From Ramazzottius varieornatus (lineage: Eukaryota > Animalia > Tardigrada): a stretch of 64,000 bases of DNA. The stretch spans positions 3,829,046-3,893,045 of the forward strand of contig BDGG01000002.1 in assembly GCA_001949185.1 (NCBI GenBank), read 5' to 3'. Under the pieces are notes generated by a model. It was not told where the DNA came from. It saw only the letters and a list, made by a program, of their open reading frames with translations, and did not search any database. Shown piece after piece: positions 3,544-42,091 of this stretch (the stretch's first letter is position 1; each line of letters opens with the position of its first letter). The translations under genes and the position numbers were made by a program.

Positions 3544-4629
3544 CTTCTTCATTGTACACCCTGCCCAAGCCAACTTGCCACCACCTGGCATTTCGACGAG
3601 GAAAAATTCAGAATGCTACATTCCCGTTCGTCCTTCCCGTTTCTCCATACAACTTTTCAAGCTGCTTCGACTGAGCTATGATTCGTTCAGTTATGGTGAC
3701 AAGCTGATTGGAAACCTTGACTACTATGACTTCCGGTGGGGAAGACATACCGCCAGGGGGTAAAACGCAGTCTACAAAATTCCATGCTTGAGTTCTTATC
3801 CTGACATTGATGTGAATAAGCATATAACTATTCTAACAGCCGGAAAGAATCGAGACAGACCAAAAAAGGTCCAAGCGAATTTGACAAACGATTTAAAATC
3901 GTCGAATCTGACCGTTTTGCGGGGGAACTCGTTTTCGAAAACAATTCTGAATGTTTTCCAGAACGGTTAATTTGCGGTTCCAGCCACTTTTCTTTTAGTT
4001 TAATGTTTGTGTTAATTGTTTTTGGTGACCGTACCGCGGGATGCCAACGGAAAACTGAGAAACAATTTTTCGAAAACGGACCCAAAAATGACAAAAGCTG
4101 GTGCGTTTTTTACTCAGCACCTCGCTGAGGTTAACGTCAATCATGACTTTCCGTAAACAGAGTTTTTGCCAATAATTTCTCGAGAGGCAGCAAAGAGAAT
4201 GCTAAACCGGGGAAAATTGATTTCGACGTGGAAAACTAATCGAGTCGAGCTGGCCTTGGAGAAATGAGTGGTAGCAAGTTGGCTTGGGCGGGCTGTATAT
4301 GTGTATATGAAATTACAACCCACAAAATCAGTTGAGAATAGAGTAAAGACCACTTGTTTGAAGTTCATATATGGCTAGAGGCGCTGTACCTTCACGAGTG
4401 ACGAGTTCTATTCAGCGGGAAGTATCACGTTGGACTGGAACAAGCACTCGAACAAATTTACAAGCAAGTCGAAGCGTCGATAGTAACAACACGAAACAAA
4501 AATACCAGTAACAGTTGAAAGGAACATCTAAACAAAATGGGCAACCGGGCACTAAATCACGCGGTACATTTCCGCCTCACCTCGATCAGTTCCTGCATGA
4601 ATACACGACTCCGTTCTGGAGCGCATTTC

Positions 4630-6369
4630 TTAGTCTCCCTGCAGAATTAGTTCAAGGTTCTTTTGCGAGTCCCCATCTTTGCTGGTAACTTCAGCCCCGT
4701 CTTCGCTAAGTTTCTGCGCTTTTGTGAAGTAAGTATTCTCGGATAGCGATGAATCCCACTGCGCGACTTCATCGATAAGCCCGGTCAGTTCTTCCTGACT
4801 CACAATCCGTTTTGCTGCCATGTCTACGTTTTTAATCTTTTTCCCGCATCCCAGTCTTTCCACCATCTCAGCATTACCGTGCTGGTCGGCACACATTGGC
4901 TATAAATTGAAGCAGCAGGATTAGTACTCTGGCTCATCCAAAAAGCTAAAAGGTTTCACCGAACAGAGCCACCTATGATGCAGAAAGTACAAGATTGTTC
5001 CCTCGAGTGGCTCACCCTTCCACCCAGTAATAATGAAGATGTGGGCCACTTGAGACAAAGATCCTGTATATGTTGTTTGCCCAGACAAATGACAGCCAAA
5101 TGATCGGAACCTACCCATGCGAGTATTGGTACGCCAAAAGATATTCCTTCCAACGTGCTGTTCCACCCGCAGTGACTGACAAACAGCCGTGTCGCTTTGT
5201 GCTTCAGGATGGTTGTTTGGGGAGCCCATGCCAAAATCAAAAACGGACATCCGGTTGTTTGAAATTGGCTTTTAATTGCTTCTTTAACGCCTTGTGACAA
5301 AGGTGCCTGGTACGCCGATTTGAGCGCCCAGATGAATGGTCGATTCATGGCTCTCAGTGTCTCACAGAGTATCAGAAGTTGATTCTCCTTCGGTGCTAGC
5401 ATCGAACCAAAGGACACGTAAACAACGGATCTTTCCTTTTGCTTGTCAAGCCATCTCGATACTTGAGAGGTTTCTGAGTGCTTCATTGGATCGTCAGGGC
5501 TATGAGCAACAACTGGTCCGACACATCCAATCTTCAGCTTAGTGAACTCCGGGCACAGCTTTAGGACTTCTCCGCGGATGTTCGGTTCGAGCCCGGTGAA
5601 CGAGTTGAACATAAGACCGGTAGCTTTGGCCAAAGACTTACGGATCTTCAAGTACTTATCTTTGAGACCTGCTGGAAGTTGGTCGGTCTTCATTTCTCCC
5701 TTAACATCTTCGTTACCGAGGGCTGTCTGTTCAGTTACTCCAAGGTACTGCATAGCCATGAAACCAGCCATGGGTGAGAACCCAAAGATCGGTATGTTTT
5801 GCTCCACTGCGGCGGTAAATGGCGCGTCGCAGATAAAAACATCGCTGATGATGACGTCGACGGAAGGAATATCAGCAATTCGGCGGGAGTAGCCATTTCT
5901 CGTACTTTTGACAGGCAAGCTGGATATCAAGTCTCTGATCGCAACACTTAATCTGTTGGAAACGAGTACAAGATCATCGGCGGACAAGCATTCGTCATGC
6001 GAACTCTGGATTCCATCTTTCAGGAGAAATAAACGTATCCTCTTCTCGTCAGCCGGTACGACGACATTCCGCTTGTACATATCATCCATCAGGCTCTCCG
6101 ATACAGCGAACGTCACTCTGTGGCCGGCAGCTACGATCCGTCGGGAAAGTTCCAGTAGAGGGGTGACATGTCCAAAAGCGGGATACGAGAAGACCAAGAA
6201 GTGTTTCGCGTCTTGGTCGCTTGATACAATATTGAGCGATGGAGGCTGGAAGAGAATTTTTGGTCGTTACTTAGTAAAAGCTTTTTTTCGAAGAGAAGGA
6301 AACGAAATCAACACTCACGTCCGATCTTGGATGACCTACGTACAAGGTCGTCTGGATGAAGGTATGCAT
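4630..6369 (-). CDS. Soluble plant-type UDP-glycosyltransferase (GT1 family), copy 1
   Basis: Exons are 6369-6319 (tentative first exon, in frame), 6245-5115 and 4899-4630. It has the N-terminal catalytic His motif YPAFGH, an Asp in VIISD, VVYVSFGS, and a full PSPG box WAPQTTILKHKATRLFVSHCGWNSTLEGISFGVPILAW|PMCADQ. There is no signal peptide or C-terminal TM helix. Confidence 0.93.
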
Positions 6370-6885
6370 GATGCTAGCTGGAGGTACCGTACTAGGACAA
6401 ACTCTTCGTTACGGTTTGTGGAAACTTCAGAAAATTCAAAGTAGTTGTCCATAAAGAGCGAAAGGCAAGACTAGTGCGGTCATAGTTGTAGGCCTCTGTT
6501 ATATACAGGCCTCGCTCGCTGCTTGTTTTTTTTTGTTTTGGCATCCTGGCAAGCTTTATTGTTAGGCTCTTCCAAGTAGTACGAAAACAACTTCCATTAT
6601 TGTCATGTGACTCAGCTGTTTGGCGAGAACGAGCAGAAAGATTCAAGCAGAAGACTGAGACACTTTTTTCTGAAGTCTGAACCAGGCATGTGTGGTTCTC
6701 ACGACCCGGAACAAGTTTTGATCATACTACAAAGTCTAGTTCGTAATGAGTCAAGCGCACTACCTGGTAATGTGGCAATGTAGCCATTTTGGTATTAGAT
6801 GAGGTGTGTGCACGCAAAACGCTCAGCACCAAGTTAATAACATGCATATGGAGGAGACGCTCTTACAAGGGAATTATGGCCGTTC

Positions 6886-6960
6886 CTACGTCACGAGCTA
6901 CGTCACGAGCTACGTCACGAGCTACGTCACGAGCTACGTCACGAGCTACGTCACGAGCTA
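6886..6960. repeat. 12-bp tandem repeat (CTACGTCACGAG) x6
   Basis: Six exact copies plus CTA, read directly. Confidence 0.95.
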
Positions 6961-7047
6961 TGCGTAGGCATCTTAGGCTTCATGACGTGGCCGTGACGTA
7001 TATGAGCAAAGTTGCAGGCTGAGCAACGTAAGACCTCGCTCCTCGTA
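6951..7047. mobile_element. Solo terminus of the TA-CGAGG family A DNA transposon
   Basis: TCACGAGCTATGCGTAGGC...GAGCAACGTAAGACCTCGCTCCTCG-TA closely matches 44861-44957. Confidence 0.8.
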
Positions 7048-8373
7048 GCGATGACGCATTAACAGCACGCTGACGTAACATTCTTTCATTGGAGGTTTTG
7101 ATAAACATCTGATCTACCTGATGTATCGGCAGGATGCCATTCCGCCTGCACTTGCGTAATGTAGCACTTCGTACTGTACAATTCGGACAAACAGCGAGAT
7201 GAAAAAAGCCTGTCAGCTGATCATCTGGGTGTCAATCAAAGCTTTTAGGCTGCGCTACGTAACTTAAGTCAACCCTAGTTTATAACCCGACACGTGACTG
7301 ATGACGTCACGGCTAGGAACGAACATTAGAAAGATGCTTGAAAAAGACGAGCTTGGACAATCAAATTTCACTGTGATATTCACGTGCTTGATTGAATCGG
7401 GTTAACCGTTTATGCTAGTTAACTGTTAACCGTTAACCCAGCACCTACCCCGTTCGTGACGTCTCCAGTCACGTATGCAAAAGCTGGTTGTCAACCAGGG
7501 TTTTTGACTCCCGTTTAATTATCGTTTTTGACGCCCATTATCGACGGTTGATTTTTTGGTACACTGTACTATTTAGGGAGCACGTTTTGATAACACATGC
7601 CTGTACATAACGGTTTCTCAGACCGGCGGCCGATAGTTCTGCGTAAAAATTTACGTCGGGATTCTTCGTTCGGAAAGAAAGTTCGTGGGTCGTCTCGTTC
7701 AGTACGTAGTATACGGATTGAGGCTGCTGGTGCTAGTCTAGGGTCTAGCCAACCTGCAGGATTTGAGTCTATTTACCAATGTCAGAGACCGTAAACTTTA
7801 AACACGCAGCTGTTTGTGGTGGGAGATTGTGCCATTTTTCCGTCAATCTCGGAAAAAGCATCTAATTATTCATACAGCCCGTACCCATCACGTCCAGCGA
7901 TACTCCGATTGGTTTTCTGCCGGACAAAAATCTACTCAAGCAGAAAAGAGATATCTGTACCTTCGATACTGGTGTCTTTAGATTAAAATCTGGAAGGAGT
8001 GGGTCGGTGGGAAAATCAAAACACGCAGCAACAGAACGACATGAATTAGGAAAGAAGTAAAGCAAGCTAGCTGCGAAGGCTGTGAAGGAAGAGGAGGCGG
8101 TCCGTCTCCGACTATAATGATAGGAGCTGCATCGAAATCTAACCCCTTCATTCCTGGTACTACCCTAATGCGAGGTGAGCCGAGTTATATCGAAGGCGAC
8201 GTCGGTTTATTTTGAAACCACTGGCAGTAAACTAGCGAATGGACCTGGTATAACAACTGTAAACGCACGTGTGTACGCGTACGTTTGCAAACCTTAAGAA
8301 CTTTCAGAGAAGATGAGAGTGGAGAAGGGGAGAAGGTAGAGGTCCATCCATGAACTTTGACGACCAAGCGTGG

Positions 8374-11351: not shown

Positions 11352-12819
11352 TTACATTGCCTGCTTCTTAGGCGATACATCTAAAAGATATTTGAAAGTT
11401 TCCGCAGAATTTCCCCCTTCGCTAATTGCCGCCATAGCGGCTTGGCCGAGGTTTTGTGCCGTCATAAAGAATGAGTTCTCCATTAGAGGTGTGTTCCACT
11501 GCGCCACTTGATCGATGATGTCCGTCAGTTCTTCGCGACCTACGATTCGTTCGCCCATCATGTTAACCATGGCGAGTTTTTTCCCGCATCCAATAGCAGA
11601 AACCAGCTCGGCGTTTCCGTGTTGATCGCCCAGCATCGGCTGAAATAGAAACAAAATCAGAATTAATTTCATGATCAAAAGCGTTGCTTTGGTCAGTCGG
11701 TATCACCCAAGCGACGATGGGAACTCCACAAGAGATGCCTTCCAGCGTACTATTCCATCCGCAATGGCTAACAAAGACGCGAACGGCTTTGTGCTTTAGG
11801 ACCGCCTTTTGAGGAGCCCACGGTACAATAAGGTACGGCTTGTTAGGGGAGTCAAACTCAGGCTTGCTAGCTTCTTGTACTTCCGCGGGCAGGAACTTTT
11901 GCTGCGCGGGTCTGAGGGACCAGATGAATGGCCGTTTCAACCCGACCAAAGTGTCAGTGATCTCTTTTATTTGCGCAACATTCGCGACAGCCACCGTACC
12001 GAAGGAGAAATACACGACCGAGCGTTCCGGCTGAGCATCCAGCCATTTCAAGATTTGCTTGGTCTCTCTATAATGTTGGTCATCGTAGATACTTCCATTA
12101 GGTAGGATTGGTCCGATGAACCTGATTTTAAGGTCTTTGAAGTCGGGTCGCGTTTGAACTACAGTTTCGCAGAACGTCGGCTCCAGCGCTTCAAAGGAGT
12201 GGATGAGCACCCCGTCCGTTTGCAATAAAACCTTGTTGAATCGAACGAGCCCGTCCTTCCAGGCCGCGGCCACGGCTATCATGTTGGGATCAGCTTCCTT
12301 TATAATATCATAATCTTCGCTCGAAGTCGGAGTATCCTCTTGGACCCTGAACATCTGCGCGGCAATATAACCGGCCACCGGAGAGAATCCAAAACAGGTG
12401 ATTCCGCTTCGTACAGCGGCCTCGAAAGGAACCGCCCCGAAAATAATGTCAGCGAGGATCACATCCACAGGTGGCATTTCGTGGTTGGATCCATCATTTT
12501 TACTTGAAAGAGGAAGGTTAGAAATGAAACCGTCCAAAAACGCGCAGCATCTGTCCGTTACATCGCACATCACATCAGTCGAAAAGTGCTCATCGAAGAC
12601 GTGGCGTATTCCATCATTCAGGCCAACAAAATTGATGAGGGTTTCTTCCTGGGGTGTCATCATCTTCCGGGTCCGCATATCTTTCAGCAGACTTTCCGAT
12701 ACAGCCAGACTTGCTTGGTGGCCTGTCGCGGCGATCTTGCGTGACAGTTCCAGCAAAGGAGTGATATGCCCGAAAGCTGGATAAGGAAGTAGGAGAAAAT
12801 GTTTTTTGGCTCCTCCCAT
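11352..12819 (-). CDS. Soluble plant-type UDP-glycosyltransferase (GT1 family), copy 2
   Basis: Exons are 12819-11707 and 11639-11352. Motifs are YPAFGH, VILAD, VVYFSFGT and the PSPG box WAPQKAVLKHKAVRVFVSHCGWNSTLEGISCGVPIVAW|PMLGDQ. The intron is at the same codon as in copy 1. Confidence 0.95.
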
Positions 12820-14482
12820 ATCTTTAACATCCTAAAATTCACTGTCAGCGTTTAACACTGTATATAGATGCAAAGTTTTTAGGAAGTTCGAAATCCCATC
12901 AACTTAGTTTTCATGTCGTTGATAGCGTTTTGTATTTTCATCGTTAGAATTTATGCGTGGTTAAAATGGTTATCATGGCTATTCATGGTGCCGGTTAGGA
13001 CACGATGATTTTACCTTGGCTACACCGTTCATCTCGAGAAATTTTCCGAATCGAGAAAATCAGGTAATAGTGGAAACGAGGATGAAGTAATCGAGCCGGA
13101 ACAAAGTTTTTACAAGTGGATCAAGCTTAATAATCGCCTTAGATGACAGAACGACAGATCTGTATCGTGTACCGCAATGCATTTCATCGGGACCTCACAT
13201 GGACAGCCGGCCTGTGTTGTACACTCTATGCAGAGTTTCAGTTCGCAAGAGTTTCACGGTAGTTTGATGTCAGCCTACGATAAGATAGCTAGGGTTTTTG
13301 AAGTTTTCAAACTTCAAAGTTTCTCAAAGTTCAAAGTTCAAGATCATGCAGAAACTAGTAACCGTATGACTTTGCAGTTTGCACCGATGCCGACGAACTG
13401 GTTTCTTCACTGCGTGTATGCAATGGCCTGTTTTCGTCTAATTGACAGGGTGAAACAAGTTTGGACGGATACAACATTTCCATCCATGAGTACAACCCCT
13501 CTATAAAAATTCCCAAGCTTTTGATATTGGTCTTAATGTCGCGTGATGTCCGGTGCTGAAGTATGACCTGCAACTTTTCGGGCAATAATTATCAAAATTC
13601 TTCTGTAAATTTGGTCGACGTCTTTTCTCTTCTTCCCTATGCCGTATGTTGTCCACCAACATCCTTTTTTTTCTGCAGCAGTAGTTGGCCCGTACGTTGA
13701 CAACAGGAAGAGAACGTTGAGTTTAAAACCGCAAGAAGATTCTTTCCTGCTTTTCTGATTTTTTCGCCGCTCCGTCAAAGTTATATGGAGCTCATCGATG
13801 GTGCTGAATTACATGCCGAGCGTGATCGTGCATGCATCTCGAGTATCTGCTGGACACGATGCTACCGACGACTTCTGTGGTCGGTGGTGAGTACCGAAAG
13901 CTTCCGCCGTCTGTCTAAACACGAGCACGAAGATCGGTTATTCTGGCGCTGACTATTGTCATCCTTTCGTACGGTTCCTGGGAAGCGTTCGACTCTAGCA
14001 ATTTAGACGCGTAAGACGTGGTCTCAAGCAATGTAGTTTTATCCCGGGCAGAAGGTGACGATATGGATTATGCCCATCGTCTGGCGTATGCTGGGTTCCC
14101 CTATCATAATCCTTATGAAGATTGCCCTGGTGTCTGTGGCTCTACACGAGCAGGCGGTGCTGATAGTTCTACAAGAGGAGACCGTGCTGCTCATAATATA
14201 TCCCCCCGTCTTCAACTTGATTTCCTGATCGAAGTAAGCCGAGAGTCGAGACAAACGACGGAAGGTGGCGAGCAAGTCCCTTATTCCACGACTATATTCT
14301 CTTTCGGGGATTCAGGGCTGGAAAAAACTGTTGGTTTTATTGCGAGCGCTTTCTGTTGGTGTGATCTAAACCATACAATTTGGCATATTATGTTTCAACC
14401 GGAGAGCGAACCAAACAAAATGTATAGTATGCTAGCAGTAGTCGCCACCTGGGCCTGGAAAACTGTTCTTATATTGACCAAC

Positions 14483-16997
14483 TCATCTGGATCGCCGCCC
14501 TTGCCGACTTTCGTTAACCTGGTTCGAAGAGCCGCGCCTCCTTACATCGTACTGATCAGCGACGAAACTGCCATTAACAGTCCCCGTGTCTTCATCCTTT
14601 CGGACCGGACCTCGAAGATTGTTGGCAGGTTTGCTATCTCTCGAAGTCGTGGTCGCTGGTGTTACAGCCATCGTCGGTAGCAGCGATGGTTTGTCCAACA
14701 GGTAGCCACCTGTTGCCATCAACAAGACGCCACCTATCGGCGCGAAAAATAGGATGGCCAGCACGGCACAGTTTAGCGTCTGCAACAGAGTAACTCTGAT
14801 GAGGAATTGAAGATAGCTCCAATCACACCGTAGAAAAATGCCAAGTTAAAGGATCGTCGCCGAATCATATTAATAAAACTAGGTAGCTGATTTCATCCTT
14901 ACATCAGCCCCGAGCTGAATGTATTCATAGCTCATGCGATTTTTTGTTGCAATATCCAATGCAGTGGCTCCAATGGCTGCCTGTATAGTTGCCTTCGGAA
15001 GAAAGCTTATGGCCAGGAACAGGTTTTCTTTCCAGGTAAAACCAAAGCGAAATGTTGCCAGATAGGTGACGAGTAACTGGACTGCGTGCGCAGCGAAAAG
15101 TAATCCTATGAATAGACCTGTGAAAACGAAAACACCGAGCGTCTATACGTACCGACAACAACAAAATGGATCACCGGTAATAGAGAATCGTTTTGCTGTT
15201 GCACGCACCAACTTTGTCTGGTTTCAAGGTTGCGATGTCAACCGCCGCGCCGATCAGTCCGAATAACAGAGGCTGAAGGATGTACCAACAGCTCTTTAAA
15301 GCGGCGGCGATCTTCTGGATACTGTCGCCGTATCCTTTGTGCCTCCATCCACGAGAGGCAACAACAGGTACGATCAGTGCGCCGATAGCTCCGGCACCGG
15401 ACAGGTTCGCGATCTTCGAACCGAAGATACAGAGAGCCCCACTGCATAGTAGCAATACAAAGCGGAATATGGAGGCCGTATCCTGCAAAGTCAAGATGGA
15501 ACTTGGGCATGAGGGTTGTCATTCAGTAAACTTGGATGATTACAACTAAACACATCTTAGTTCGTTACGGTAACTGACATCGTCGCCACTGGGAAAGTAG
15601 ACAAGAATCCAACCAACAAAGATGCCGAACGCGAAACCCACGATGAAGGTCAGGAAGATGGCGGCTATGTTGAATGCCAAACTGCCTGAAAATTATGGAA
15701 AAAGTTATGGTATTATGTTTAGTTGGTTCGTGTTGGTTAAAGTTACCGCACGTACTACCAGTGCAGTGCCTAATTAATAGGCCCTGGCATTATGTACCAT
15801 TGGACAGCGCAACTCCAAGGCAAATACTGTTTCCGCAGATGGCGATGACGTCGCAGATGGTCGCTGCCGCAATAATCAGAGATGGTATACCCTTGCCTTG
15901 ACCAAGCTTTTGCTCTTGGAAAACCAGCATAATGGGAACAATGACCGCTGGCGACACGGCACTGATGAGAAACCTACAAAAGGTCAAGAAGTTCGCGGTC
16001 ATTTCATTATGGGCTACGATGTAGAGCAGGCCGATTGTAGGAACGTGTGCTTCCCTGTTTATATATTAGCGGCAAACGATATGCACAAGCACGTGGGCAG
16101 AGAAAACATCACAACTTAACCCTAATGCCGCGCTGAATAACCATGGGAAGTTGATCATGTAATGAGCTAGAATGGCGATGAAGATGGTAATGCCAAAAGT
16201 AGGCAACAAGGCCAGGCTCATGACGGCTCCCAGTCTTTTCCGGATAGCATCCTGGTCCAGACCGAGGCCTGCTCGCGTCAGTATAACAGTCAAGGCCAGA
16301 TTCCTGTTAAACGCAACGATAAAACTTTTTACTTTTCTTAAGGGCCATTTCATATCCGACGTACCGTAAAACACTGCTCCATTTACTGTCCACGTATCTG
16401 GCAAAATCAATTGGATAAACGTTCCGAAACAGCGCCCCAACAATCAGCATTCCTGCGGCCGAACACATTTTACGTCCCCGATTCGGTAAGTAAAGGTATT
16501 GGATACCGATAACAATTACCAAGTAGTGGTGCCAGACGCATTCGTTCGACGAGCCATCCCGCCGCTAGTCCGACCAGCACGATCATGTATAGTCCCAGCA
16601 CATTTCCATGTAGAAGCATCTGACTACCGAGGACAGACCATAACGCAGCCCATATCATGAATGCCAGGAGGGCCAGAGTTACCAGTCGGGAGACAATGCC
16701 GGTTGGAGGAAGTAAAAGATCATATTTGAGGCGCTGAGCCAGCGGGGCATCTGGCGAAGGTTGCGTATGGGAAGACTTCAAAGCTGGACGAAGCACTTCT
16801 TGTACAGCTTTCTTGACCTTGCCCATGAATCCGACGCCCTCGAAGGTGGAGGTCGTTAATCGTCCCGGCTTCTGGCATTGCTCATTCTTGCAGGTTGGGT
16901 CTGCGCACCGTATACAAAGGTATTTGTTTCCCTCGCTGGCGCGACGCTGATTCATGGTATTGGCATCAATATCGATCTTTGTCGTAAGATCAGTTCC
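14483..16997 (-). CDS. SLC9B/NHA-family (CPA2-like) cation/H+ antiporter with atypical ion-binding residues
   Basis: Seven spliced exons (approx. 16997-16520, 16452-16365, 16303-16121, 15973-15798, 15686-15579, 15482-15208, 15117-14902) plus a last exon 14779-14483. Signatures are APLLGMLIVG, RNLALTVILTRAGLGLD, AVSPAVIVP, KGIPSLIIAAA, QPLLFGLIGA and LPKATIQAAIG. A candidate ATG is at 16955 and an upstream exon is possible. Confidence 0.92.
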
Positions 16998-17024
16998 TGA
17001 AACACACAACATTATTATAGGGTA

Positions 17025-17364
17025 CGAGGTGAACGACATAATTCGGGCATAGTGGTTTTTCACTCGTAATTTGGGCATATCTTTACTCAGCTCCTGCTGC
17101 GCGTAATGAACTGCTTCTTGTTTCCTGAGGTAGACTGCTCCCTTTTCTCGAGGTTTCAATAGGTTTGAGAACAACAAAACGTTGTGGATCACGGGAATTC
17201 GGCGTGGGAGAGACATGGGTCTGTCCAATGTTAAAAAGCCTAATGTTGTATCAACAGGCGTACGATGAGAGATGAATCAAGCGTTGACGATAATGTTCAA
17301 ACTTTTCGCGTTGCCCGAATTATGGTGCGAAAATCGATATGCCCGAATTATGTCGTTTACCTCG
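17025..17364. mobile_element. 340-bp MITE, TA-CGAGG family C, copy 1
   Basis: TIR CGAGGTGAACGACATAATTCGGGCATA / TATGCCCGAATTATGTCGTTTACCTCG, flanked by TA. A similar copy lies at 38614-38943. Confidence 0.92.
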
Positions 17365-18516
17365 TAGGGTAATCTTTTCTATTAAAATTTACAGCGAGGA
17401 AGAGCTCTTGATTTAGTGCAGGGAAGTATCTTCAAATGTCGGGTAGATTAGAATAACGAGCACGGTAATTTCGAGCCCACTTGAACCATGATTGACATGA
17501 AGTACGTAATTTACATCAGTCATTGAATTTCGCAGTTGTAGATCTAGAGTACCGCGTCCCCGCACGAAATTTGTTTGTGTTAATGTATCAAAGGTGAGCT
17601 TGAAGGATAAGCATGACTAAAGAAAGACTGACGTTCCAGTAACGATTGAAAAACTATCGAAACAGTTAACACCTGCCCGGTGGCATCGGAATGCAAGTAT
17701 CTTGGAAGACAACAGTTACTATATTGTTGTCCATCCAGAATCTAAAGTTTCCACTCACCGATAAGTTCTCTCGAAGAGATGGTCGGGTGACGTACTTTGC
17801 GTGGGCAACTCGTCTCAAGTCCGGACCAATGAAAGGATGTCGCGTGTTGCTGCCGGCGTTCTTGTATCTGATTCTTCCTCTAGACCACTTGAAGTGTAGA
17901 CAATAACCGGTGTGTACGAGGATCAGAGTTTGATTGTCAAAAGAAATACTAATCCGATACATTTAAGTGTACTCGGTATTTTTGTAGCAAAAAAGATGCA
18001 TGGCGAATTCCGCATGACAGCTAAAGCGAGCCAAGCGGCAAAAGCTGCGAGCTCGGTCTTGTGAAATGAGTCTCGACGCAACGCGCTGGGTTCCTGCCCG
18101 ACCAGCTTTTCATTGTTGGGCTTCATGATGTTTATATTACTGTTACAGCCCACGAAAACAAATTAAGACAATACTTACCGTTCTTGCAGTGTAAGCAAGT
18201 ATCCTCATGCGAAAGAATGATTTCGATGACTCCATCGAGAGTTCGCTTGCATATCAAGAATCAGCGTTGTGATTCTGGCATGCGCGAGCGCGTCCTGAAC
18301 GTTTGAATTCGGCAAAAGAAAACAGTGGCTCCCCGACGCCGCGCTAACGCAGCACAACATTCTCCTGCTTAGACAGCACATGCAACTAGGTACGCTTTTG
18401 GCTTCAAAGGTACCGGTACAGGGCTTCCGTTTGATGACAGATACTATATTGATTTTGACGGCCACAAAGACACCGAAATCATACTGCTTCATGATCATAG
18501 AATCACAGGTCTCGAC

Positions 18517-20832: not shown

Positions 20833-23800
20833 TCACGTCTTCAGCGTAGCAGCTACAGCCGCTATCAGCGCAGCGCCTTTCCCACTGCCGTCTTCCGACA
20901 ACATCAGCTTGAACTGCAAAAAGAGCGAGAAACATCGATCAAGTAACAACCTTCAATCATGCAGGAAATCTGTCATTTGAAACCATATAATATCATTCAT
21001 GTATAGTGAGAAAGATCCTCCCTCACCTTGCACTTTGGATCGACAAACCGGTTGATTGTCTCCGTCATTAGCTTGTGTACTTTGGGGTGATACTTGTAGA
21101 CGGATCCATCAATGCCCACTGTACACATGGGCCGCTCCATGTGGTTCAAAACAGTGGCGACACCTGAAGAACATTCACCATCAGACGTCCGATATCACAA
21201 AAAAATATCATTAGCAAAAACTAGTTGGAGACACCACTCGAATATCACAGTGAAAACTTTACCTGCACCGGCTAGCGCAGAAGCGCGGGAGGAAACCAAG
21301 GAACAGACATATCTGACGAGTGCTGCATCGTCCCTTGAGGCATTGGTAATGCCCAGTTCATCTTTGAGAATCTTTGCGCCTCGATTGACTTGATCGTCTG
21401 GCTCACTGCGAAGAAAACGCTGTTTATTTTGATTCGCGTCCACAACTTTCTACCATTTCTTCTACCTTTCAATTTCCGAGACATATTTGGTGTAGAAAGA
21501 TTCCTTCTTTTTCAGTACGAGAGGCATCTTTCCTTCGAAAAGCTGGCCTGCTTCGATCAGTTTGAGGAGACACAGGCGGACGATTTCACCGAGGTACATG
21601 CCAGACAGCATCTTCTCATATCTAGACAAGACACCACCAACGTATCAGATGTCCATTTTAGAACCAGTTTCGGCGGCCATAAAAAGAAGCCTAGCTGGCA
21701 CGGCGTACCTCTGGCGTCCTCGGTTTATCGAGTTCTCGTCAAGATGCCGGTCGAAGTCTGTCATGATAAAGTCCAGGGCTCCATCATCACCGAAAGCGCC
21801 CCATTCCATGTTGATGATGACTTCCTTGGGTTCTCCCCTGTCTTCATCCCACAGCTCCACATTTTCCAGCTTCTCCATATAGCAGGCATTGCATCCCGTA
21901 CCTGCGACAAGAAAAACCACACATTTAGATTACCGGCGGCGTCAGACCACATTTGCTCTTCTGAACTCCAACAGTGCACTATAGTTTTTGGCCTACATTA
22001 GTCAGCATTCTGCAACAAGCACGTGAAGCCTTATGGAAAGCACAAAAGACACCATTGCTTTCGGGTACTTAGTCATCAAAAGAAGCGAGGAATAGCAACA
22101 AACTGCCCTCACAGACATTCAGGACGCAATGTGCGGCTGTTGAGCCGAACCACAACTCACCTACAGACAACATCTCTACCACCTGACACGATGACACCTT
22201 ATGTAGGTGCATATCTTCAGTGCAACAAAGCAAACAGCGTGCACCATAGACAAGCACATATGACTGCATTGAGCGAATCCGGCAAGTCGTGAAACGTATG
22301 CATGTGCATGACACACTGGACTACTGCACTGAAGTCCGCGAGCGTTGAGCCCGCTTCCCCAACAGCAGCAGCATAGTTCTTTTATATTGACTGGAGGGTT
22401 CTCGTCTATTCTTCGACCTTCACCGGATTCATCTCCGTCGTTTCCTAAATTCTAACGACATTTCCAAACTTCTTACCGATAATGAGGCCCATATAGCAGG
22501 TGGGTGTCGAGTGTGCGCACGACATTAAGGTGCCAGTCGTGTCGTTTACCACGGCCACAAGATGGACATCAAAGTCCTGTTAAGATAACAAGAATTAGAT
22601 GTGCATCTGCCAAGAAGTGTGACTAACTATCAACCAAGGATATTGATCATTACCCCTCGACGGGTTATGGCTTCTTTCAGCAGGCGAGCAACGTCTTCGC
22701 CTTCGACACCCGACGCACTGAAGCCTTTCGTCCATCTGATTAGCTTGGCCGACGCAAGGCCCATCTGTTTGCAGGGAAATGAAAAGGTAAACCCAAGCGG
22801 AAGTATCTGATCCAGTATTCCTTCAGCCGACATGAAACGGTACATGCAATCCGCGATGTGGTCGAACAACTGCAAAACCAGAATTTCGCCAGGGAACAGC
22901 GAAGAGTTGATTGAGTTACACACTCAGACCCACCAATCAACAACAGGAACATGACGTCATGCTATATCACATTACGTCTAACACAAGCTGTGGATTCAGA
23001 AAAAACAACCTGCTTGTCTTCTTACCCCTGCGCCAGTTCCGGTCATGACTTCCGTCGGAACATTGAAGATCTTGCTGCTCATCTTGACATGTCTGCCTTT
23101 GAGGTCGATGAGGAGGACTCTAAAGTTGGTACCGCCAAGGTCCAGTGCCAAAAACTTGCCCTCCTCTGTGCCTTTCGGAGTGGCGCGCACATAAGTTGGC
23201 AGCATTTTGATCTTGGCAGTCTCATTGGTGTCTTTGCCGAGGCCTTTCTTCATGTTTTCGAGCAATAAGCTCATCACCTTTCGGATCTGATCATCGCTCA
23301 CTCTCAGCGGTTCGGTGATGCTCTGCACCTGAGGCGACCACTGTAAAAAAAACAGACGGAAATCTTTAGCCACAACCCACAGATGGGAAGGTGCAGAAAA
23401 CCAACATTTGGGAGAAATCCCCCAGAAAATGTTTATCCATCACCAGCCTTATTCAGATGGGACATGGGTATAAAGCAACGTGGAACGGCTCGCCCCGATG
23501 GTAGACAGAGCAAGCCGTTGCCTAAAGCATACTGCAACCTACCTGTTCTCAATATGCCTGTCCAGCACGCTTTGACTTTTGACCGCCCCTTGTGGCCACG
23601 TTACTGTAGTGGCGCACACAAGGGGCCAAAATCAATACATCAATCAAGTCAAAACGTGCCAAGTGATTCTCCCGCCACGATGGTTGGCGCTTGTATGATA
23701 TCTTTCGACCAGCACGGTCAGCACCTGATCGTAAGCACTGACCGAGCGACCAGGGGGCCCCCAAGAGAGCTCGGTTGATCACTGGTTACTTTTGCCATCA

Positions 23801-26638: not shown

Positions 26639-29588
26639 CTATGCTAGTTTAGGAATGATGTGTTTAGCAGAAAGAGCCAAAATGGGTGTACCAGCCGGAA
26701 GTCCGGGAAACGGACCCGCCGAACCAGCAATGTCGATGTGGGTGTACGGGATCGGATTCTCCGAGTCGATGCCGTGTTTGTCCAGTCCCGAAGCCGCAAT
26801 CATGAAGGCAGCGGGCAGCTGATGACCACGGGGAGTACGAGTGGATGGTAAGTTGTTGCACTGAAGCAGGTCCTCGTACTCGGAAGGTCCCTTGCACAAG
26901 GCGTAGTCTTCCCGACGGATGCTGGACAGCTCGACGGGTTCCGCCATCTTGCAGCCGTGATCGTACAGCTCGCGAGAAGAGTTTTTCTTCTTAGCTGGAC
27001 CATTATCTAGAACCGCCTACCAAAACAAGAACAAACATATGCTACATACGCCAAGTGAAACGTGGGAAAATGATGTAAACCAAATCGTTTTCCCAAGTGG
27101 CGCACTCAGCCGACAGAAACGTAAATGTCCGCCACTTGATACATCGATCTGGTTCGGCCCGCGTCCCAAGACTTATTGAGCCACCTCGAAGGACTAATTG
27201 TAGAAAGTTGTGTTTGTACCGAGTAGTCAGGACCGAAAGCCATCACGACATGTCCAGTCAACGTGGCAATGGTGTAGACCTGCGGGTTGAACAACTTCTC
27301 CTTGATGATCTTCTCCTTCATGAAGCACAGAAGGTCCGTCATGACCATGCGGCCTTCAGCGTCAGTGTTCCCCACTCGCACACGAACTCCAGCCCGGGAA
27401 GTGATAATTTCGTCAGCCACGTAACAATCTGTAAGAGCGCGATGTCGTCATTTTGCATGAGGTGGTGTTTATTGATGCGTAGGGGTTTATTGGGTGTAAA
27501 CAAAAACGACTCACTTTCGCCAATACTGTTACGGATCATGGACATGCTGCCGATGACTCGAATGCCCTTCGGTTTCAGTAACGACAAGGTCTTGAAGAAC
27601 CCAGCGACCGCTGCGGCACCGCACTTGTCACGATGCATACCGGCCATCACTCCACCTGCCTTGACGTCAGCGCCACCTGTATCGTAAGTGATACCCTGCA
27701 AAAAACAGCTCGAATCAGAATTCTCTTCATCAAATTAGGCAATGGTTCCAAATACGGATATTTAGCTTCTACGTACAAAAGTCTGAATATAAAGAAAAAC
27801 AAATTCGATGTTATTCGGCCATTTGTTCAGGTTTCTCAACGGCGAGTCAAGAGATTTATGTAGATAACTCAGTAGGAAAAGGTTCGCATCACATCCTTCT
27901 CCTTGACACGACTTTGCCAACTCAGTTGTAAATTAGACTTCAGTGGAAAAACGGTCAGGAAGACAGTAGAATCGCGATGCTTCGTACCTTGCCGACGAGC
28001 AAAACCGTTTCGGACGTTTCTCCTTCGCCATTGTACTCCAGTAGGATAACACGGCCATGGTGACGCGGAATCACTGCAACACGAAAATGAGACAGTAAAA
28101 CAGTATCATATTTCGAACTGCGTTGAACCTGGGATGATGGACCATTTGACGTACCGGAAGCAGCCCGGTTGACCGCGCCAAGAAGTGGAAACTCTTTGTC
28201 TAACTTGTCCTGGTCGTCGATGACTTCGATCTTGACGTCTGTTCCCTTGAAAGTCTCCATGACGTACTCGACCGCCTTAGGCGCGGCCATGCGCTCCGGG
28301 TCCGACCCACCGATGTCCCGGGCGACAATACTGAAACCACGGACCAACGTATTCGCAATTGGACTTTTCTACAGAAGGACCATTACCGTCCAGCCTCCAT
28401 CGCGGTGGCCGCTCGCTCGATATTGGTGATGCGAGTCGCATCGGGAATATGGAAGCCGATACGATCAGCTTTGACGGGAGTCTTACCCTCGACCTCTCGG
28501 AGCTCCAGCGGCTAAAAAGAGACGGACATTTCGTTGTTGTTTCTCACAAGCTATTTGGCGTTATTCTCACCATGTATACTGCTCTCAAGGCACCGAGAAC
28601 GGACACAAGTTCGGCTTGCTCGTAGCATGGGTTGCTTCGGATCTTGCTTTCGACATCGACGAAAACCAGGAGCGACTTTGCACCGGCTGACAATGCTCTG
28701 TAACGAAAACGATAGCAGGTCTGACGAGTGAGTGGAAGGATATGGGAGACTGATATGGCAAAGGCGGTCTGCGTACCTCTTGACGCCATTAGCAGCTGCC
28801 TCTTCGTAGCGACGCGCGTCATCGATGTCCCGGTTCAAAGGTCCAGTTGGAGCGAAGACCTTCCCATAAAGATAAGAGTTATGTTTGCTCCTGTAAGATG
28901 TGTTATCGGCCATTGGTACGATAACAGCTTCGCAGTCTACTTGGGGAAAGTCACCCAGATATGAAAATTTGTACCATGGTGCTAACCTGGTAGTTATGGA
29001 ACTGCAACCCTGGCGGAACAGGGCAAGAGAAAAAGTGTGTCTGCCGAACTTACCACTCGTTGAACTCCCAGATCGTTCTTCTGAGGAACTCGCAGGACGA
29101 CAGCGGAGCTGCTGGCCGCAGCATCGACCTGGAAACAAACAAAGGAAGATGTAAGTGGAGGACCTTCTGCCGAGTATTCACTATTCAGCCGTGAATAGCA
29201 TTGTTACTCCCGTCAAGAAGCGTATGTTGTCATATAAGCGCTGTCGCTGAAGGCAAGAATATACGTGACGTCTTGCGCCATGATCCTCACCTCCGTAATT
29301 TCTTTGAGCAGTGAATTCACGATGTCGAACCGAGGAAGAACACGGGAATCGGTGACATGCTTCTCTCCCACAACAACCAAAGTGTCATAGTCGGAAAGGC
29401 TTCTTCCATCCGCGATGAATTCGACCTTGGTATTCAGGAAAGTCCTGTGGCAAACAGAGACGAGCATTTTCAGTTTCTTCTTACTGTACCAGTCCACAAT
29501 CATTGTCAAAATGCAATTGCAACTGACCATCTTTCTTTGCAAGATTCGAAGCAAATACTCACGTGGAGTCCAGCTTGAGGCTCGCCAT
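26639..29588 (-). CDS. M17 leucyl aminopeptidase family protein (W07G4.4-like subfamily)
   Basis: Multi-exon gene with ARDIGGSDPERM, LVGK|GITYDTGGADVKAGGVMAGMHRDKCGAAAVAG, NTDAEGRM, IATLTGH and YTHIDIAGS. ATG at 29588 (MASLKLDS). Confidence 0.93.
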
Positions 29589-37010: not shown

Positions 37011-37974
37011 GATCATGAAACGTCACCCAATAGCCGTCCTGGATTATCAGTCATGATATGCAAACTGGCTTCCGCGGATGGGCAAGTCTTCGCTTCGCGG
37101 CTAACGAAGCACCCAGAAATACGGTGGTGCTTCTGAACTACAGTATGGCCATCGGAGGTCTATTGGTTCTCGAACTGGTGTTCTCTGGATGGATCAGGTT
37201 CCTGGTGGGTCGCGCACCTTTCGAAAGGACCGAAAGCAGAAACCTCGATGAAGCTGAAAAATCATGGAACCGCAGATCCGCTTCGCTTGTACTAGCAGCT
37301 CCCTGGTAGCCCTGACCACCTCGTACCCGACAGCCAGTGACTGCGGACACGATGATGCTTCTGGCCAAGATATGGCCGTCACAGTGGGCGCGTTTTTTGA
37401 CCTTGCTGTGGATGGATCGAGGTTCCGGTAATATTGGTTTCCTTCACGGGAACTTGCGTGCCGTAGTTTGTGGACGCGGTTCATCGCGTTCTTCTGTTGG
37501 GTCTGTCGGCAGCTTGAGCATGGTTGTGAGGCTTTTCGGTAAGAAGGACTGATGTCAGTGCATGTGATTACAGCAGCTCCCCCGCGGCACTTTTTGCGAT
37601 GTTTTGCCGGCCCGATAATCATGACTGGCGAGTAGAAGTTGTTCATAACGAGGTCAGCTGGCTTCTGTGCTTGATTTTTGCGGCATATTGTTATGCAACG
37701 ATAATGCACGAAGGAAACCGGTCGAGCTCGTGTATACCAGTCGGTGAAAAAAGGTTTTTTTTCCTATCGAAAGATGCATGTTGGGCTTTCGCTGCTTGTC
37801 TTACCTTTTGTACCTTGTCTGTGAGTAGTTATATGGCACGCCATCGCACTTTTTTCCTAACATCGCACGAACGGAAAAACGTAACGCTACTTTTAATTTG
37901 CACCTTGGCTTCTTTTTACGATCAGACTCTCTTTCCTCATTGTCTGTCTCTTAGCTGATCAGAACTGTAATAAA

Positions 37975-40900
37975 ATGTGGGTTTTGGGGATACTTTCGCT
38001 GATCGTTCCGATACTGAGCAGACTGACTTCAGCCGAGATGCGTGATTTCACACGATGTCCGCTGGATCTTCAAGCCTTGAAACCGTGTGCTTGTGCCAGT
38101 CCGGCAACAGGTAACTTCACTGGATTATTAATCAGATGTACCAATGTGAATCTGCCGCAGTTGGCCAAACGGTTGAGACTTCTCAGTGGATACACACTGG
38201 CCAAGTTTGAAGTGGACGGAGGACTGGTGCGAAAGTGGGACAGGGACCTCCTGGGGAACGTCACGATTCTGCAAGTGGTGATCAGAAATGTGGGTCTTGA
38301 GCTGATCGAAGAAAAAGCCATGGGGACAAGTCCGTTGACAACCGTGACGGGTTTCAGCGTGCCGAATAATAACCTGATGGAGGTTCCTGGGATTGTGTCG
38401 CAACTGACTTCGCTGAGGATTCTGGACCTGTCGTTCAATCGGCTAAAAGGTTTCCCGCCTAGTGTGTTGCGAGGATTACCGTTGGAGGAAATAAACTTGG
38501 CGGGTAATCAACTAATAGAGGTATGTTCGTTGTAAGAGACGCTGAGGTTGTCTGTTTGTCGGCCCTCTCCACTTTCCTACAGATTTCTTTCGGAATATTC
38601 GAAGTAATGTGTACGAGGTAAACGACATAATTCGGGTATAGGGATTTTTCACTCGTAATTTGGGCATATTTTTTCTCACCTCTTGCTGCGCGTAATGAAG
38701 TGCTTCTTGTTTCGTGAGGTAGACTGATCCCTTTTCTCGAGATCTCAATAGGTTTGAGAACGACAAAGCGTTGTGGATCACGGGAATTTAGCCTGGGAGA
38801 GAGATGGGTCTGTTCAATGTTAAAAAGCCCAGTGGTGTATCAAAAGGCGTACAATGAGAGATGAATCTAGCGTTTTTAAACTTTTCGCGTTGCCCGAATT
38901 ATGGTGCGAAAATCGATATGCCCGAATTATGTCGTTTACCTCGTACATTACTTTCGAGCCTTTTGAAACAGAATCCGTCAAAATGTCCCTCAACGTTCCG
39001 ACAGTGTTAAATTTGTTTCACCCAGGTTGCAAAATTTTCGCAATTGTTAAATGTGCATTTCCATGTCTGATGCGCGAACTCAACTGGGTACTGTTTTACA
39101 CTAGCTAGTTTGTTTTGCAGATGTCGCCAAAGGCATTTGCTGCTCTTCCGCAACTCGTTTCGCTCAGCCTCGGCTTCAACAAGCTCACTTCCGTTCCCGA
39201 CCTTGGTATCCCGCTGAACCACGGTCTAAAGACCCTCAACATGAGCGGAAACCTAATCCGTTCAGTGGGGCCCAGCGAACTTCACAACCTCTCCTATGTT
39301 ACCGTCCTCGACCTCTCCCATAACCAGCTGGACACCATGCATGATGATGCTATCCGCGGCATGTCCCGTCTCCTGATACTGTACCTCGACCACAACAACC
39401 TCGTCGAAATCCCGCAAGGGCTTTTCGCTATGGGAATGACCATCCGTAACCTCTCCCTCTCATATAACCGTCTGGAGAAACTCTCCCCCGAAGCCATAAG
39501 CCCCCTGTACTACATCGAAGAAATCAACCTCGACCATAACAACTTCCGCTCTATCCCCCCGAATTTCATCTCGAACAAGTTCCACCTTGACAAGCTGAAT
39601 ATGTCGTGGAACCCGATCGAGCGCATCGAAGATAAAGCCTTGACTGGGTTGAAGAACATGACGATGCTGGACTTGAGTCACTGTAAACTGTCGTACTTCG
39701 GACAGATGGCCATTGGTGACCTGGAACGTCTTGGTACTTTGCTGCTCGGGTACAACGAGATCACGGGGATTGGAGCGGACAGTTTGGGCTTTCTTCCGTC
39801 AGTTCAATATCTCGATTTGAGTAACAACAAGATTTCTTCGCTGCGAGGTTTGCAGATCGCAAAGTTCATTGGGGTGATGACACTGGATATGTCCAGGAAC
39901 TTCATACATTCGATCAAGTCGATCGATGTACCGAAGCTGGCCATGCTGATGCATTTGGACCTGAGTTTCAACGGGCTGTCCCAGCTTGCACCGGGATGCT
40001 TGAAGGACTTCTTGTCCTTGATGACCTTGAAGCTAAACGATAACTCGCTCAAGAATATCGATGCGGGAACTTTTGGAAATATGTACAGCTTATTGGAACT
40101 GGACTTGAGCAATAACAACATCACATCGTTCCAACGGTAAGAACTGATTATTCACAATGCCGGAAAAGTTAGGAGCTGAGCAAACCAAACGCACAAAACA
40201 GTTATCATGAGAGGCGCAGTTTTCCGCTCGACAAAAATGAAGACGTGCGCCACGTGAAATGGCAACTGCACGTTTGTTCGCCCCGCTTTAGATTACTGAA
40301 TTTTTGTTGAAGGTTTGCTCTGCGAGGGCTTCGGGCTTTGAGGACCGTCAGGCTGGACAACAACTTCATCAACGAGTTCTTCCAGATCACGACAACCCTC
40401 GACACTATTTCTGCTCGGAACAACTCCATTCCTCAGATCAAACGCGCGAGTTTCCCACGCGCCAACGCCCTGTCCGTCCTCGACTTGTCTTTCAACAATA
40501 TTTCCTCCATCGAAAGCGAAGCTTTCAAGTACCTTTACATCTTGTCAACCCTGAACCTCCGTGGGAACCGCTTGACTGAAATTCCCAAAGCCGAACTGAA
40601 AGACCACGTCACGATGAAGAGCCTCGACCTCGGACAGAACTTGATCACAACAGTCGATTACGATGCTTTCAGTGGACTAAGACTCAGAAGCCTTTCGTTG
40701 GACCACAACAAGATCACGTCGTTTAACGAGACGGCACTTCGAGGTCTTTCGGAACTCACTGAGCTACATATCGGCGGGAACCAGTTGCTCCAACTCGAAC
40801 CCACTCTGTTGAAGGGGCTTAGCGCGGTGAACTTCGTAGATGTCGGCGGAAACCTTTTCACAGATATTCCCACTGAAGCTTTCGAGGACCTGTACTCTCT

Positions 40901-42091
40901 GCAAAAGATCGACCTGAGCAAGAATAAACTGGCAACCATTCCTCGTCGGATATTCTGGAAGAACGCCTACTTGACGGAAGTTGATTTTAGTGGGAACCAA
41001 ATCCGAACGATACCTACACATATCGAAGAGAATCCCGGACATCTGAAGGTGCTGAACTTTTCCAACAATTTAGTGGTGGAAGTCCTGGGTACTCCGAACT
41101 TGCCCTACGTGGAGAAGTTGGACCTGTCCTACAACGCCTTCCAAAAACTCAGTCTGAGTGCCTTAACGAAACTAACGTCGCTGAAGGAGCTACGGCTCAG
41201 CGATAATCCGATGGAGATCCTGTCAGACGGAAGTCTGACCAGCAACTTGGGTTACGTCAGTTTGGATCGAACCATGCTCCACTCCGTGCCGTTTTCCATA
41301 CTTCTGGCGCTAACGCAAGATAACTCTACCTTGTCTTTCGATAACGTGACAATCCAGTGTGATTGTCGGGCGGTTGGACTACAGGAATATCTGAGGTTGA
41401 AACAGAACACCTCGAACAACTTTTGTTCGCTTCCCGCCTCCCTTCAAGGTGGAGTTCCCTGACTGCTTGCCATAATCTAGTTTCATGACATTGTTGCGAG
41501 AAGCGCTAAGGCTGAAAATTCATGAGCGAATTTTTCGAAATTAAAAGACGAGTCAATCAATGAGTTCTCATTACCAAAATGCAATGCGGAAGTTGGATGT
41601 TTGAATGGGATGTCTGACTTTTTCGGTTTATCTTTGCAGGTGTTCCAATTGTCAACGCAACGCTAGAAGGGGATTGCCAGAAAAACAGGCAAGCAGCCAA
41701 GAAGCTCTTGGAAGAGAAGCAACTCATCGACCTGCAAGCGGCTCGTTCGGGGGACGCTATCATGCTGTCCTGGGAGCCGAAAGGGCCCGTGGATGTCTGG
41801 AGCTTCAGTGTGTCCGTCGTGTACGAAAACAAGTCGATCCAAGCTCCAAAGATGCACATTCCTTACTACGTGGATACTTACGCAGTCGACGACCTCTCTT
41901 TTTCAAAGAACTACAGAGCATGTGTCCAGCCTTACGACCGAGCAGGAGCGCCTGTTGGGTCGACGGTATGCAAGCTGGTTCGACTTGGTTCCATGGAGCA
42001 AGTTAGCGGAGCAATGTCGGCGAAATTGACAGATAGAAATTCGGCAGTTATTTTTGTACTCTTTGCCTTGGTATGGAGTTTGATGCAGTGA
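37975..42091 (+). CDS. Extracellular leucine-rich repeat protein (chaoptin/artichoke-like) with LRRNT, many LRRs, LRRCT, FN3-like domain and GPI-type tail
   Basis: Exons are 37975-38520, 39121-40136, 40313-41448 and 41640-42091, all phase-compatible. It has a signal peptide, an N-cap CP...PCAC...C, LxxLDLSxNxL repeats, an IQCDC C-cap, MLSW...NYRACVQ (FN3-like) and a hydrophobic C-terminus. Confidence 0.92.
38614..38943. mobile_element. 330-bp MITE, TA-CGAGG family C, copy 2 (in intron 1 of the LRR gene)
   Basis: Same TIRs and interior as 17025-17364, TA-flanked. Confidence 0.92.

Follow-up and report, generated by a model that had tools for sequence, protein, structure and literature searches.

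What becomes of an exchanger of the NHA (SLC9B) family when most of the charged residues at its ion site are gone? The question is raised by a gene on the minus strand of the window (the whole stretch of 64,000 nucleotides of Ramazzottius varieornatus DNA analysed here), in which an earlier note had seen three of the four key charged residues replaced and had argued that this looked selected rather than decayed. Our analysis upholds these replacements, and what is new is that they mark a real, selected, lineage-restricted variant of a known transporter, the function of which is read here from its sequence. Throughout, three-letter residue names are numbered in the variant and one-letter names in human NHA2.

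The gene is RvY_04710 (protein P0001, 591 aa), to which a single-exon search gave a 100% match. The spliced protein, read from the ATG at 16955 to the TGA at 14483 over eight coding exons, equals P0001 letter for letter, and AVSP, D279, K460 and T462 are kept, so the earlier description of an intact gene with conserved family motifs is correct. All seven coding introns are GT-AG; all seven are skipped in contigs of the RNA-like runs X4, X6 and X14, and four of the seven in run X11. These runs were taken as RNA from the splice joints in their contigs and are referred to here as putative RNA. A further intron of 762 nt (CT..AC), located in the 5' UTR with its joint at about 16996/17759, is skipped in runs X8 and X13. 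None of the splice joints is present in the DNA run X1, which shows 0 differences from the window over 14200-17050. One contig of run X14 has a poly-T loose end at 14319, which places a poly(A) site near this position, and this end together with the spliced joints denotes a processed transcript. RvY_04710 is intact, spliced and polyadenylated. The gene span first given, 14483 to 16997, holds at its TGA end, while 16997 proved to be the acceptor end of the 5' UTR intron, with the start codon at 16955.

In the direction of transcription, an untranslated exon (17759..18284), recognised by the joint in X8 and X13, has no in-frame ATG, and its upstream end is not defined. In run X13 this exon carries insertions of 15 nt and 13 nt at 17894 and 17949, which are consistent with a different strain. 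The next exon (16520..16996) contains the ATG (16955-16953), the N-terminal tail, TM-1, TM1 and the start of TM2. Residues 12-27 of the tail (window 16955-16870) form a C-x2-C-x4-C-x4-C motif, CIRCADPTCKNEQC, possibly a small zinc-binding or lipidation site, which is also present in fragment P0259, partly in Hypsibius P0002, and absent from P0003. The coding exon at 16365..16452 lies between GT-AG introns of 67 and 61 nt that are skipped in the RNA-like contigs, and is followed by the exons with TM4 (16121..16303), with the AVSP crossover, Cys282 and Asn284 (15798..15973), with TM7 (15579..15685) and with TM8-TM10 (15209..15482). The exon at 14903..15117 encodes the region aligned with R432, W457 and K460, and the last coding exon (14483..14779) encodes TM13 with Cys497 (14770-14768), the C-terminal tail and the stop TGA (14485-14483), ahead of a 3' UTR (14319..14482) delimited by the poly-T end in X14. 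Loose ends at 14712, 14779 and 15675 in runs X8 and X13 match, by eye, the paralogue P0003 (RvY_12535); they are joined across two of the intron positions of RvY_04710, which indicates that this second variant copy is also spliced.

The 5' UTR intron contains a 345-bp MITE-like element (17022-17366) with 55-nt terminal inverted repeats that are 80% complementary. In DNA run X1 the contig depths over it add up to 4,600-7,100, against about 24 in the flanks, which implies many copies, and a second copy, 89% identical, is found at 38611-38945 between LRR-coding frames. A candidate upstream coding exon at 17216-17087 was rejected: the RNA-like contigs join 16996 to 17759, and the stretch is repeat element. 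The window, part of a compact eukaryotic genome, also holds two UDP-glycosyltransferase genes on the minus strand (long open frames at 4959-6266 and 11566-12831, Pfam UDPGT), a hexokinase (22999-23439), an M17 aminopeptidase (27109-28368) and a leucine-rich-repeat plus fn3 gene (37897-42088); nothing was found that connects the last three to the exchanger.

In the phmmer alignment with human NHA2 (7b4l), PTFGI/PCIVE, ICD/FDD and AVQ/LIR pair without local gaps, which puts the replacements at E215, D278 and R432 in register. Taken together with the NHA2-like superposition of the predicted model described below, this leaves the register in no doubt. The E215 position is Ile213 (ATT, 16191-16189), the DD motif reads Cys276-Asp277 (TGC-GAC, 15855-15850, for D278-D279), and the R432 position is Gln435 (CAG, 15079-15077) with His432 (CAC, 15088-15086) three residues upstream, each as the earlier note had it; for these key codons the putative RNA contigs list no alternative letter. 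The changes go beyond these three. W457, a further partner of R432, is Phe460 (15004-15002), E309 is lost (Thr307), E407 is replaced by Ala410, and F286>N, V429>H, T284>C and A493>C are found as well. D279, K460 (Lys463, 14995-14993), T462 and the AVSP crossover are retained. R432 of human NHA2 forms pairs with E215 and D278 and is stacked on W457, and E215 in turn is in contact with K460 (PMC12072577). Because R432 and its partners form one network, the losses of E215, D278 and R432 are not independent, and the variant reads as having removed R432 and all three partners (E215, D278 and W457) in one coherent event.

How unusual this is can be judged from the family. Of the best 120 homologues, 109 carry E-D-D-R-K, seven have one Asp changed and three full-length proteins carry I-C-D-Q-K, the remaining row being a truncated isoform of P0003. 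The three are P0001, the second Ramazzottius paralogue P0003 and the Hypsibius exemplaris orthologue P0002. They have in common the I/C/Q/F set and the new His, Asn and Cys residues; all three also carry P144A and V463I, have Phe or Met at T501, and agree with the family at D279, A243-V244-S245-P246, I283, R177, K460, A461, T462 and D473. Fragment P0261 also has His-x-x-Gln, and together with P0259 it groups with the variant clade. In a wider count, 363 of 386 rows, many of them mutually close relatives, are non-variant with all five columns filled: two of these 363 are without E215, one is without R/K432 and none is without both, with D278 lacking in 21 and D279 in 34. By this count, changes to the DD motif appear common in the NHA family and loss of the Glu-Arg pair does not. 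The 144 rows P0123-P0264, from invertebrates and other eukaryotes, include 17 DN and 6 ND, as well as DS, EN, TD, VD and others, and these DD-varied rows nearly always keep E215 and R432. Among the other homologues with a residue at the position, Ile at 215 (0/256), Cys at 278 (0/258) and Gln at 432 (0/248) are absent, which argues that the set is not chance.

Canonical EDDRK NHAs exist in Hypsibius (P0006) and Paramacrobiotus (P0059/P0121), and fragment P0223 groups with the canonical tardigrade proteins. A canonical Ramazzottius NHA was not among the matches listed, a blank that means little, since one such search did not recover even P0006 and P0121, which were part of its query. Among the homologues gathered, the variant was not found in Paramacrobiotus or heterotardigrades; two metagenome scans returned no locus, and a literature search with most subscription journals outside its reach returned no publication describing it. 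Among the relatives sampled, the I/C/Q/F variant appears restricted to a tardigrade lineage of two genera.

An unrooted IQ-TREE analysis of 22 proteins, which omitted 15 rows of a 37-row tree (long-branch, bacterial and fly rows included), joins the variants in one clade (support 100/100), whose stem measures 0.96 (1.09 as drawn, where forks are left open) and whose tips measure 0.19-0.32. Within it, the Ramazzottius proteins P0001 and P0003 pair as sisters (100/97). An AU test (p 0.446) does not reject a grouping of the variant clade with the canonical tardigrade NHAs. The protein is SLC9B/NHA by descent, as its top hits are all NHA or 9B2-like and it is nested among eukaryotic NHAs. Over helix ranges that we chose ourselves, the variants are 82-89% identical in the site helices versus 62-71% in the dimer domain, the corresponding values for the canonical Hypsibius-Paramacrobiotus pair being 78% and 66%. 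Between run X13 and the window, 12 or more coding positions differ; among the differences listed, all eight in residues 78-522 are synonymous, and three of the four in the N-terminal tail are non-synonymous. The piece counts of X13 imply at least four further differences: the binomial p for eight of eight synonymous among those listed is 1.7e-5, and would become 0.003-0.026 if four more were all non-synonymous. The replacements are kept across two genera and a duplicate, and the listed membrane-region strain differences are synonymous, so the claim of selection rather than decay made for this gene finds support, and with it purifying selection on the variant.

The alternative of decay would take the form of relaxed selection on a redundant duplicate. 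The variants keep 102-104 of 135 family-conserved positions versus 124-129 in the canonical tardigrade NHAs, and expression of the Hypsibius orthologue is low, as decay would have it; however, two genera, and a duplicate in one of them, carry identical fixed replacements, the tips are short, and the transcripts are spliced and polyadenylated, so we regard decay as very improbable.

The predicted structure points to the same family. The AlphaFold2 model, built from 14 sequences (mean pLDDT 71.5, pTM 0.67), has 14 membrane segments and two broken helices (229-240/244-256 and 450-459/466-480), and its best match is bison NHA2 (Z 45.7, rmsd 2.6 Å over 395 residues, 41% identity). The predicted fold is thus of the 14-TM NhaA type, TM-1 and both broken helices included, and NHA2 structures rank first for it; the ESM Atlas returned Na_H_Exchanger clusters only, with a core TM of 0.95 to an NHA1 model. 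With human and bison NHA2 (SLC9B2) and human NHA1 (SLC9B1), the variant shares this predicted fold, the AVSP motif where TM5 is broken, the residues K460 and T462 where TM12 is broken, and also D279, R177 and D473; it differs from them in E215>I, D278>C, R432>Q, W457>F, E407>A, the lost E309 and the new His, Asn and Cys residues. Since the DD motif reads CD and the E215-R432 bridge and W457 are replaced by Ile, Gln and Phe, the protein is not filed as a canonical NHA2-type exchanger, though it is SLC9B-derived by descent and fold.

Nor do its neighbours supply a ready label. The canonical tardigrade NHAs (P0006, P0059/P0121) are 42% identical to the variant in a near-gapless alignment, and EDDRK and W457 are intact in them. 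NHAs of flies and other invertebrates that read ND, DN, DS or DA (e.g. P0204, P0202, P0005, P0074) show, like the variant, one natural Asp loss, but unlike it they keep E215 and R/K432. The one-aspartate CPA2s (Kef, KEA2, CHX) and the CPA1s (NHE, NhaP) resemble it in that position 7 of the CPA motif holds a single acid and position 6 a residue other than an acid, and one-aspartate CPAs are electroneutral in the model of PMC6181914; however, position 8 is still Lys or Arg in them and Gln in the variant, and the Glu at position 5 of CPA1s and the Thr at position 4 of Kef correspond to Ala and Pro in the variant. Set against the electrogenic CPA2 pattern (NhaA/NapA), it has Cys for Asp at position 6 and Gln for Lys at position 8; against CPA1 (NHE/NhaP), Ala for Glu at position 5 and Gln for Arg at position 8; and against the K+-selective Kef-like CPA2s, AVSP rather than an LSST-type motif with Thr at position 4. 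By motif, the variant appears to fit no other CPA class compared (CPA1, electrogenic CPA2, Kef-like).

The reading that we prefer, and to which we give an even chance of being right, is that of an electroneutral one-aspartate cation/H+ exchanger that has dropped the whole R432 network and would have changed its selectivity or shifted its pH range. In this protein R432, E215, D278 and W457 have given way to uncharged residues while D279, K460 and the crossover motifs stayed, and the joint removal of a buried Glu and Arg would leave no unpaired charge. D279, with the V244 carbonyl and S245, would bind H+ and cation in alternation as the core moves as an elevator; Gln435, His432, Cys276 and Asn284 could supply a substitute hydrogen-bond network, and Na+ affinity would probably be lower or altered. 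For this exchanger speak the retention in the variants of D279, which can be lost elsewhere (34/363), and the site helices, which are the most constrained part of the protein.

Published work makes a necessary loss of Na+/H+ exchange in the variant less convincing. The E215-R432 bridge is described as mainly structural and as tuning cation specificity; swapping Glu and Arg gives a Li+-specific protein, and affinity is higher in W456F (PMC8850199). NHA1 without its first Asp (D258A/N) keeps 75-90% of its activity (PMC13672361), and human NHA2 R432Q still confers Li+ tolerance (bioRxiv 2022.04.26.489501). Moreover, NapA K305Q is electroneutral, exchange in CPA2s that lack the first acid is modelled as electroneutral and as running through the second, and across the CPA superfamily the residue corresponding to D279 carries ion and proton almost universally (PMC6181914). 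Against the exchanger, human NHA2 D278G reaches the membrane and is inactive in yeast (bioRxiv 2022.04.26.489501), bison E214A and R431A are severely impaired and Na+ enters in MD only with both aspartates charged (PMC8850199), and about 95% of CPAs have Arg or Lys at position 8 (PMC6181914). With E309 and E407 also gone, the pathway carries less negative charge than would be expected of a cation carrier.

The main rival, which we put forward tentatively, is that the core now transports an anion or a small neutral solute (e.g. Cl-, bicarbonate, ammonia or an organic acid), either coupled to H+ or uncoupled; D279 would then be its proton site, with K460, His432, Gln435 and Asn284 lining a new substrate site. 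Four conserved acids are lost, and the buried formal charge moves from -1 (E215, D278, D279, R432 and K460) to 0 or +1 (D279, K460 and His). The polar Asn284, His432, Gln435 and Cys497 are invariant in the three variants and each is present in at most 1 of 258 others, and a long stem (0.96, unrooted) followed by short tips fits neofunctionalisation. Other carriers of the NhaA fold, namely ASBT, SbtA, CitS and PIN, move anions. Fly Nha1 has also been proposed as an H+-Cl- cotransporter, according to a review (PMC9174904). However, the Na+-binding AVSP motif and D279 are unchanged, the 17-21 acidic residues of the membrane region are within the family range (mean 22, sd 2.8), and bison NHA2 was without Cl- or K+ currents (PMC8850199). 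One could speculate, with the same reserve, that the tardigrade lineage made a Na+/H+ exchanger into a proton-coupled anion, ammonia or small-solute carrier, with the R432 network erased and a new His/Gln/Asn/Cys site, used on entering anhydrobiosis.

A non-transporting sensor or regulatory subunit, for instance a partner of the canonical tardigrade NHA, seems to us unlikely. Single mutations at these positions do cripple NHA2 (PMC8850199; bioRxiv 2022.04.26.489501), and the canonical EDDRK paralogues of Hypsibius and Paramacrobiotus could perform the exchange, but constraint peaks in the ion-site helices and not in the scaffold, the gate residue I283 and R177/D473 (equivalents of the NHA1 gating pair R157/E453) are kept, and there is no large regulatory domain. 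We consider it more doubtful still that Cys276, Cys282, His432 and Cys497, with Asp277, form a soft metal or metalloid site or a redox switch, as in a Zn/Cu/As-type carrier or an oxidation-gated exchanger. These four residues too are invariant in the variants and each in at most 1/258 others, and Cys276 and His432 adjoin the known site; the total of 7-9 Cys is nevertheless ordinary for the family (mean 8.1), and Cys is a frequent small substitute in helices.

The relevance to desiccation stress suggested in the earlier note gains modest support from Hypsibius. In PMC5531438 (S7 Data), the gene bHd00332.1, which carries the label SL9B2, stands at 0, 0 and 0 TPM in active animals and at 2.3, 3.7 and 4.5 TPM in tuns (reads 0, 0, 0 versus 53, 61, 93; FDR 5.9e-5). 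This rise to about 3.5 TPM is a weak signal: the gene belongs to a set of 1,422 such genes, the measurements come from individual animals and many low genes jump similarly from zero. In file 1 of PMC6925440, bHd numbers are one below BV898 tags (YLAT1, CRERF), and BV898_00330 and BV898_00338 are OQV26211 and OQV26219; by interpolation from this offset and the flanking accessions, bHd00332 would be BV898_00333, OQV26214 and hence P0002. The canonical Hypsibius NHA shows an increase too, from about 1.3 to 3.7 TPM, in another table. No SL9B2-labelled row was found in the expression sheets of Ramazzottius, a species with little transcriptional response to drying, and no matching row in the supplements of PMC9145152, PMC8166744 and PMC11413396. 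From the Hypsibius orthologue, we infer that the variant may help to manage ions or pH as the animal dries.

The role of this NHA-specific network (E215-R432-D278-W457) is disputed, as it has been seen as setting stoichiometry (PMC6181914), as mainly structural (PMC8850199) and as the trigger of conformational change (PMC12072577). Single mutants of the network misfold or lose activity, and the variant is a natural, selected protein without the whole of it, which makes it a direct test case for the three models. If its substrate has changed, the variant would show how an SLC9 carrier switches cargo, and it would add a candidate to the desiccation physiology of tardigrades.
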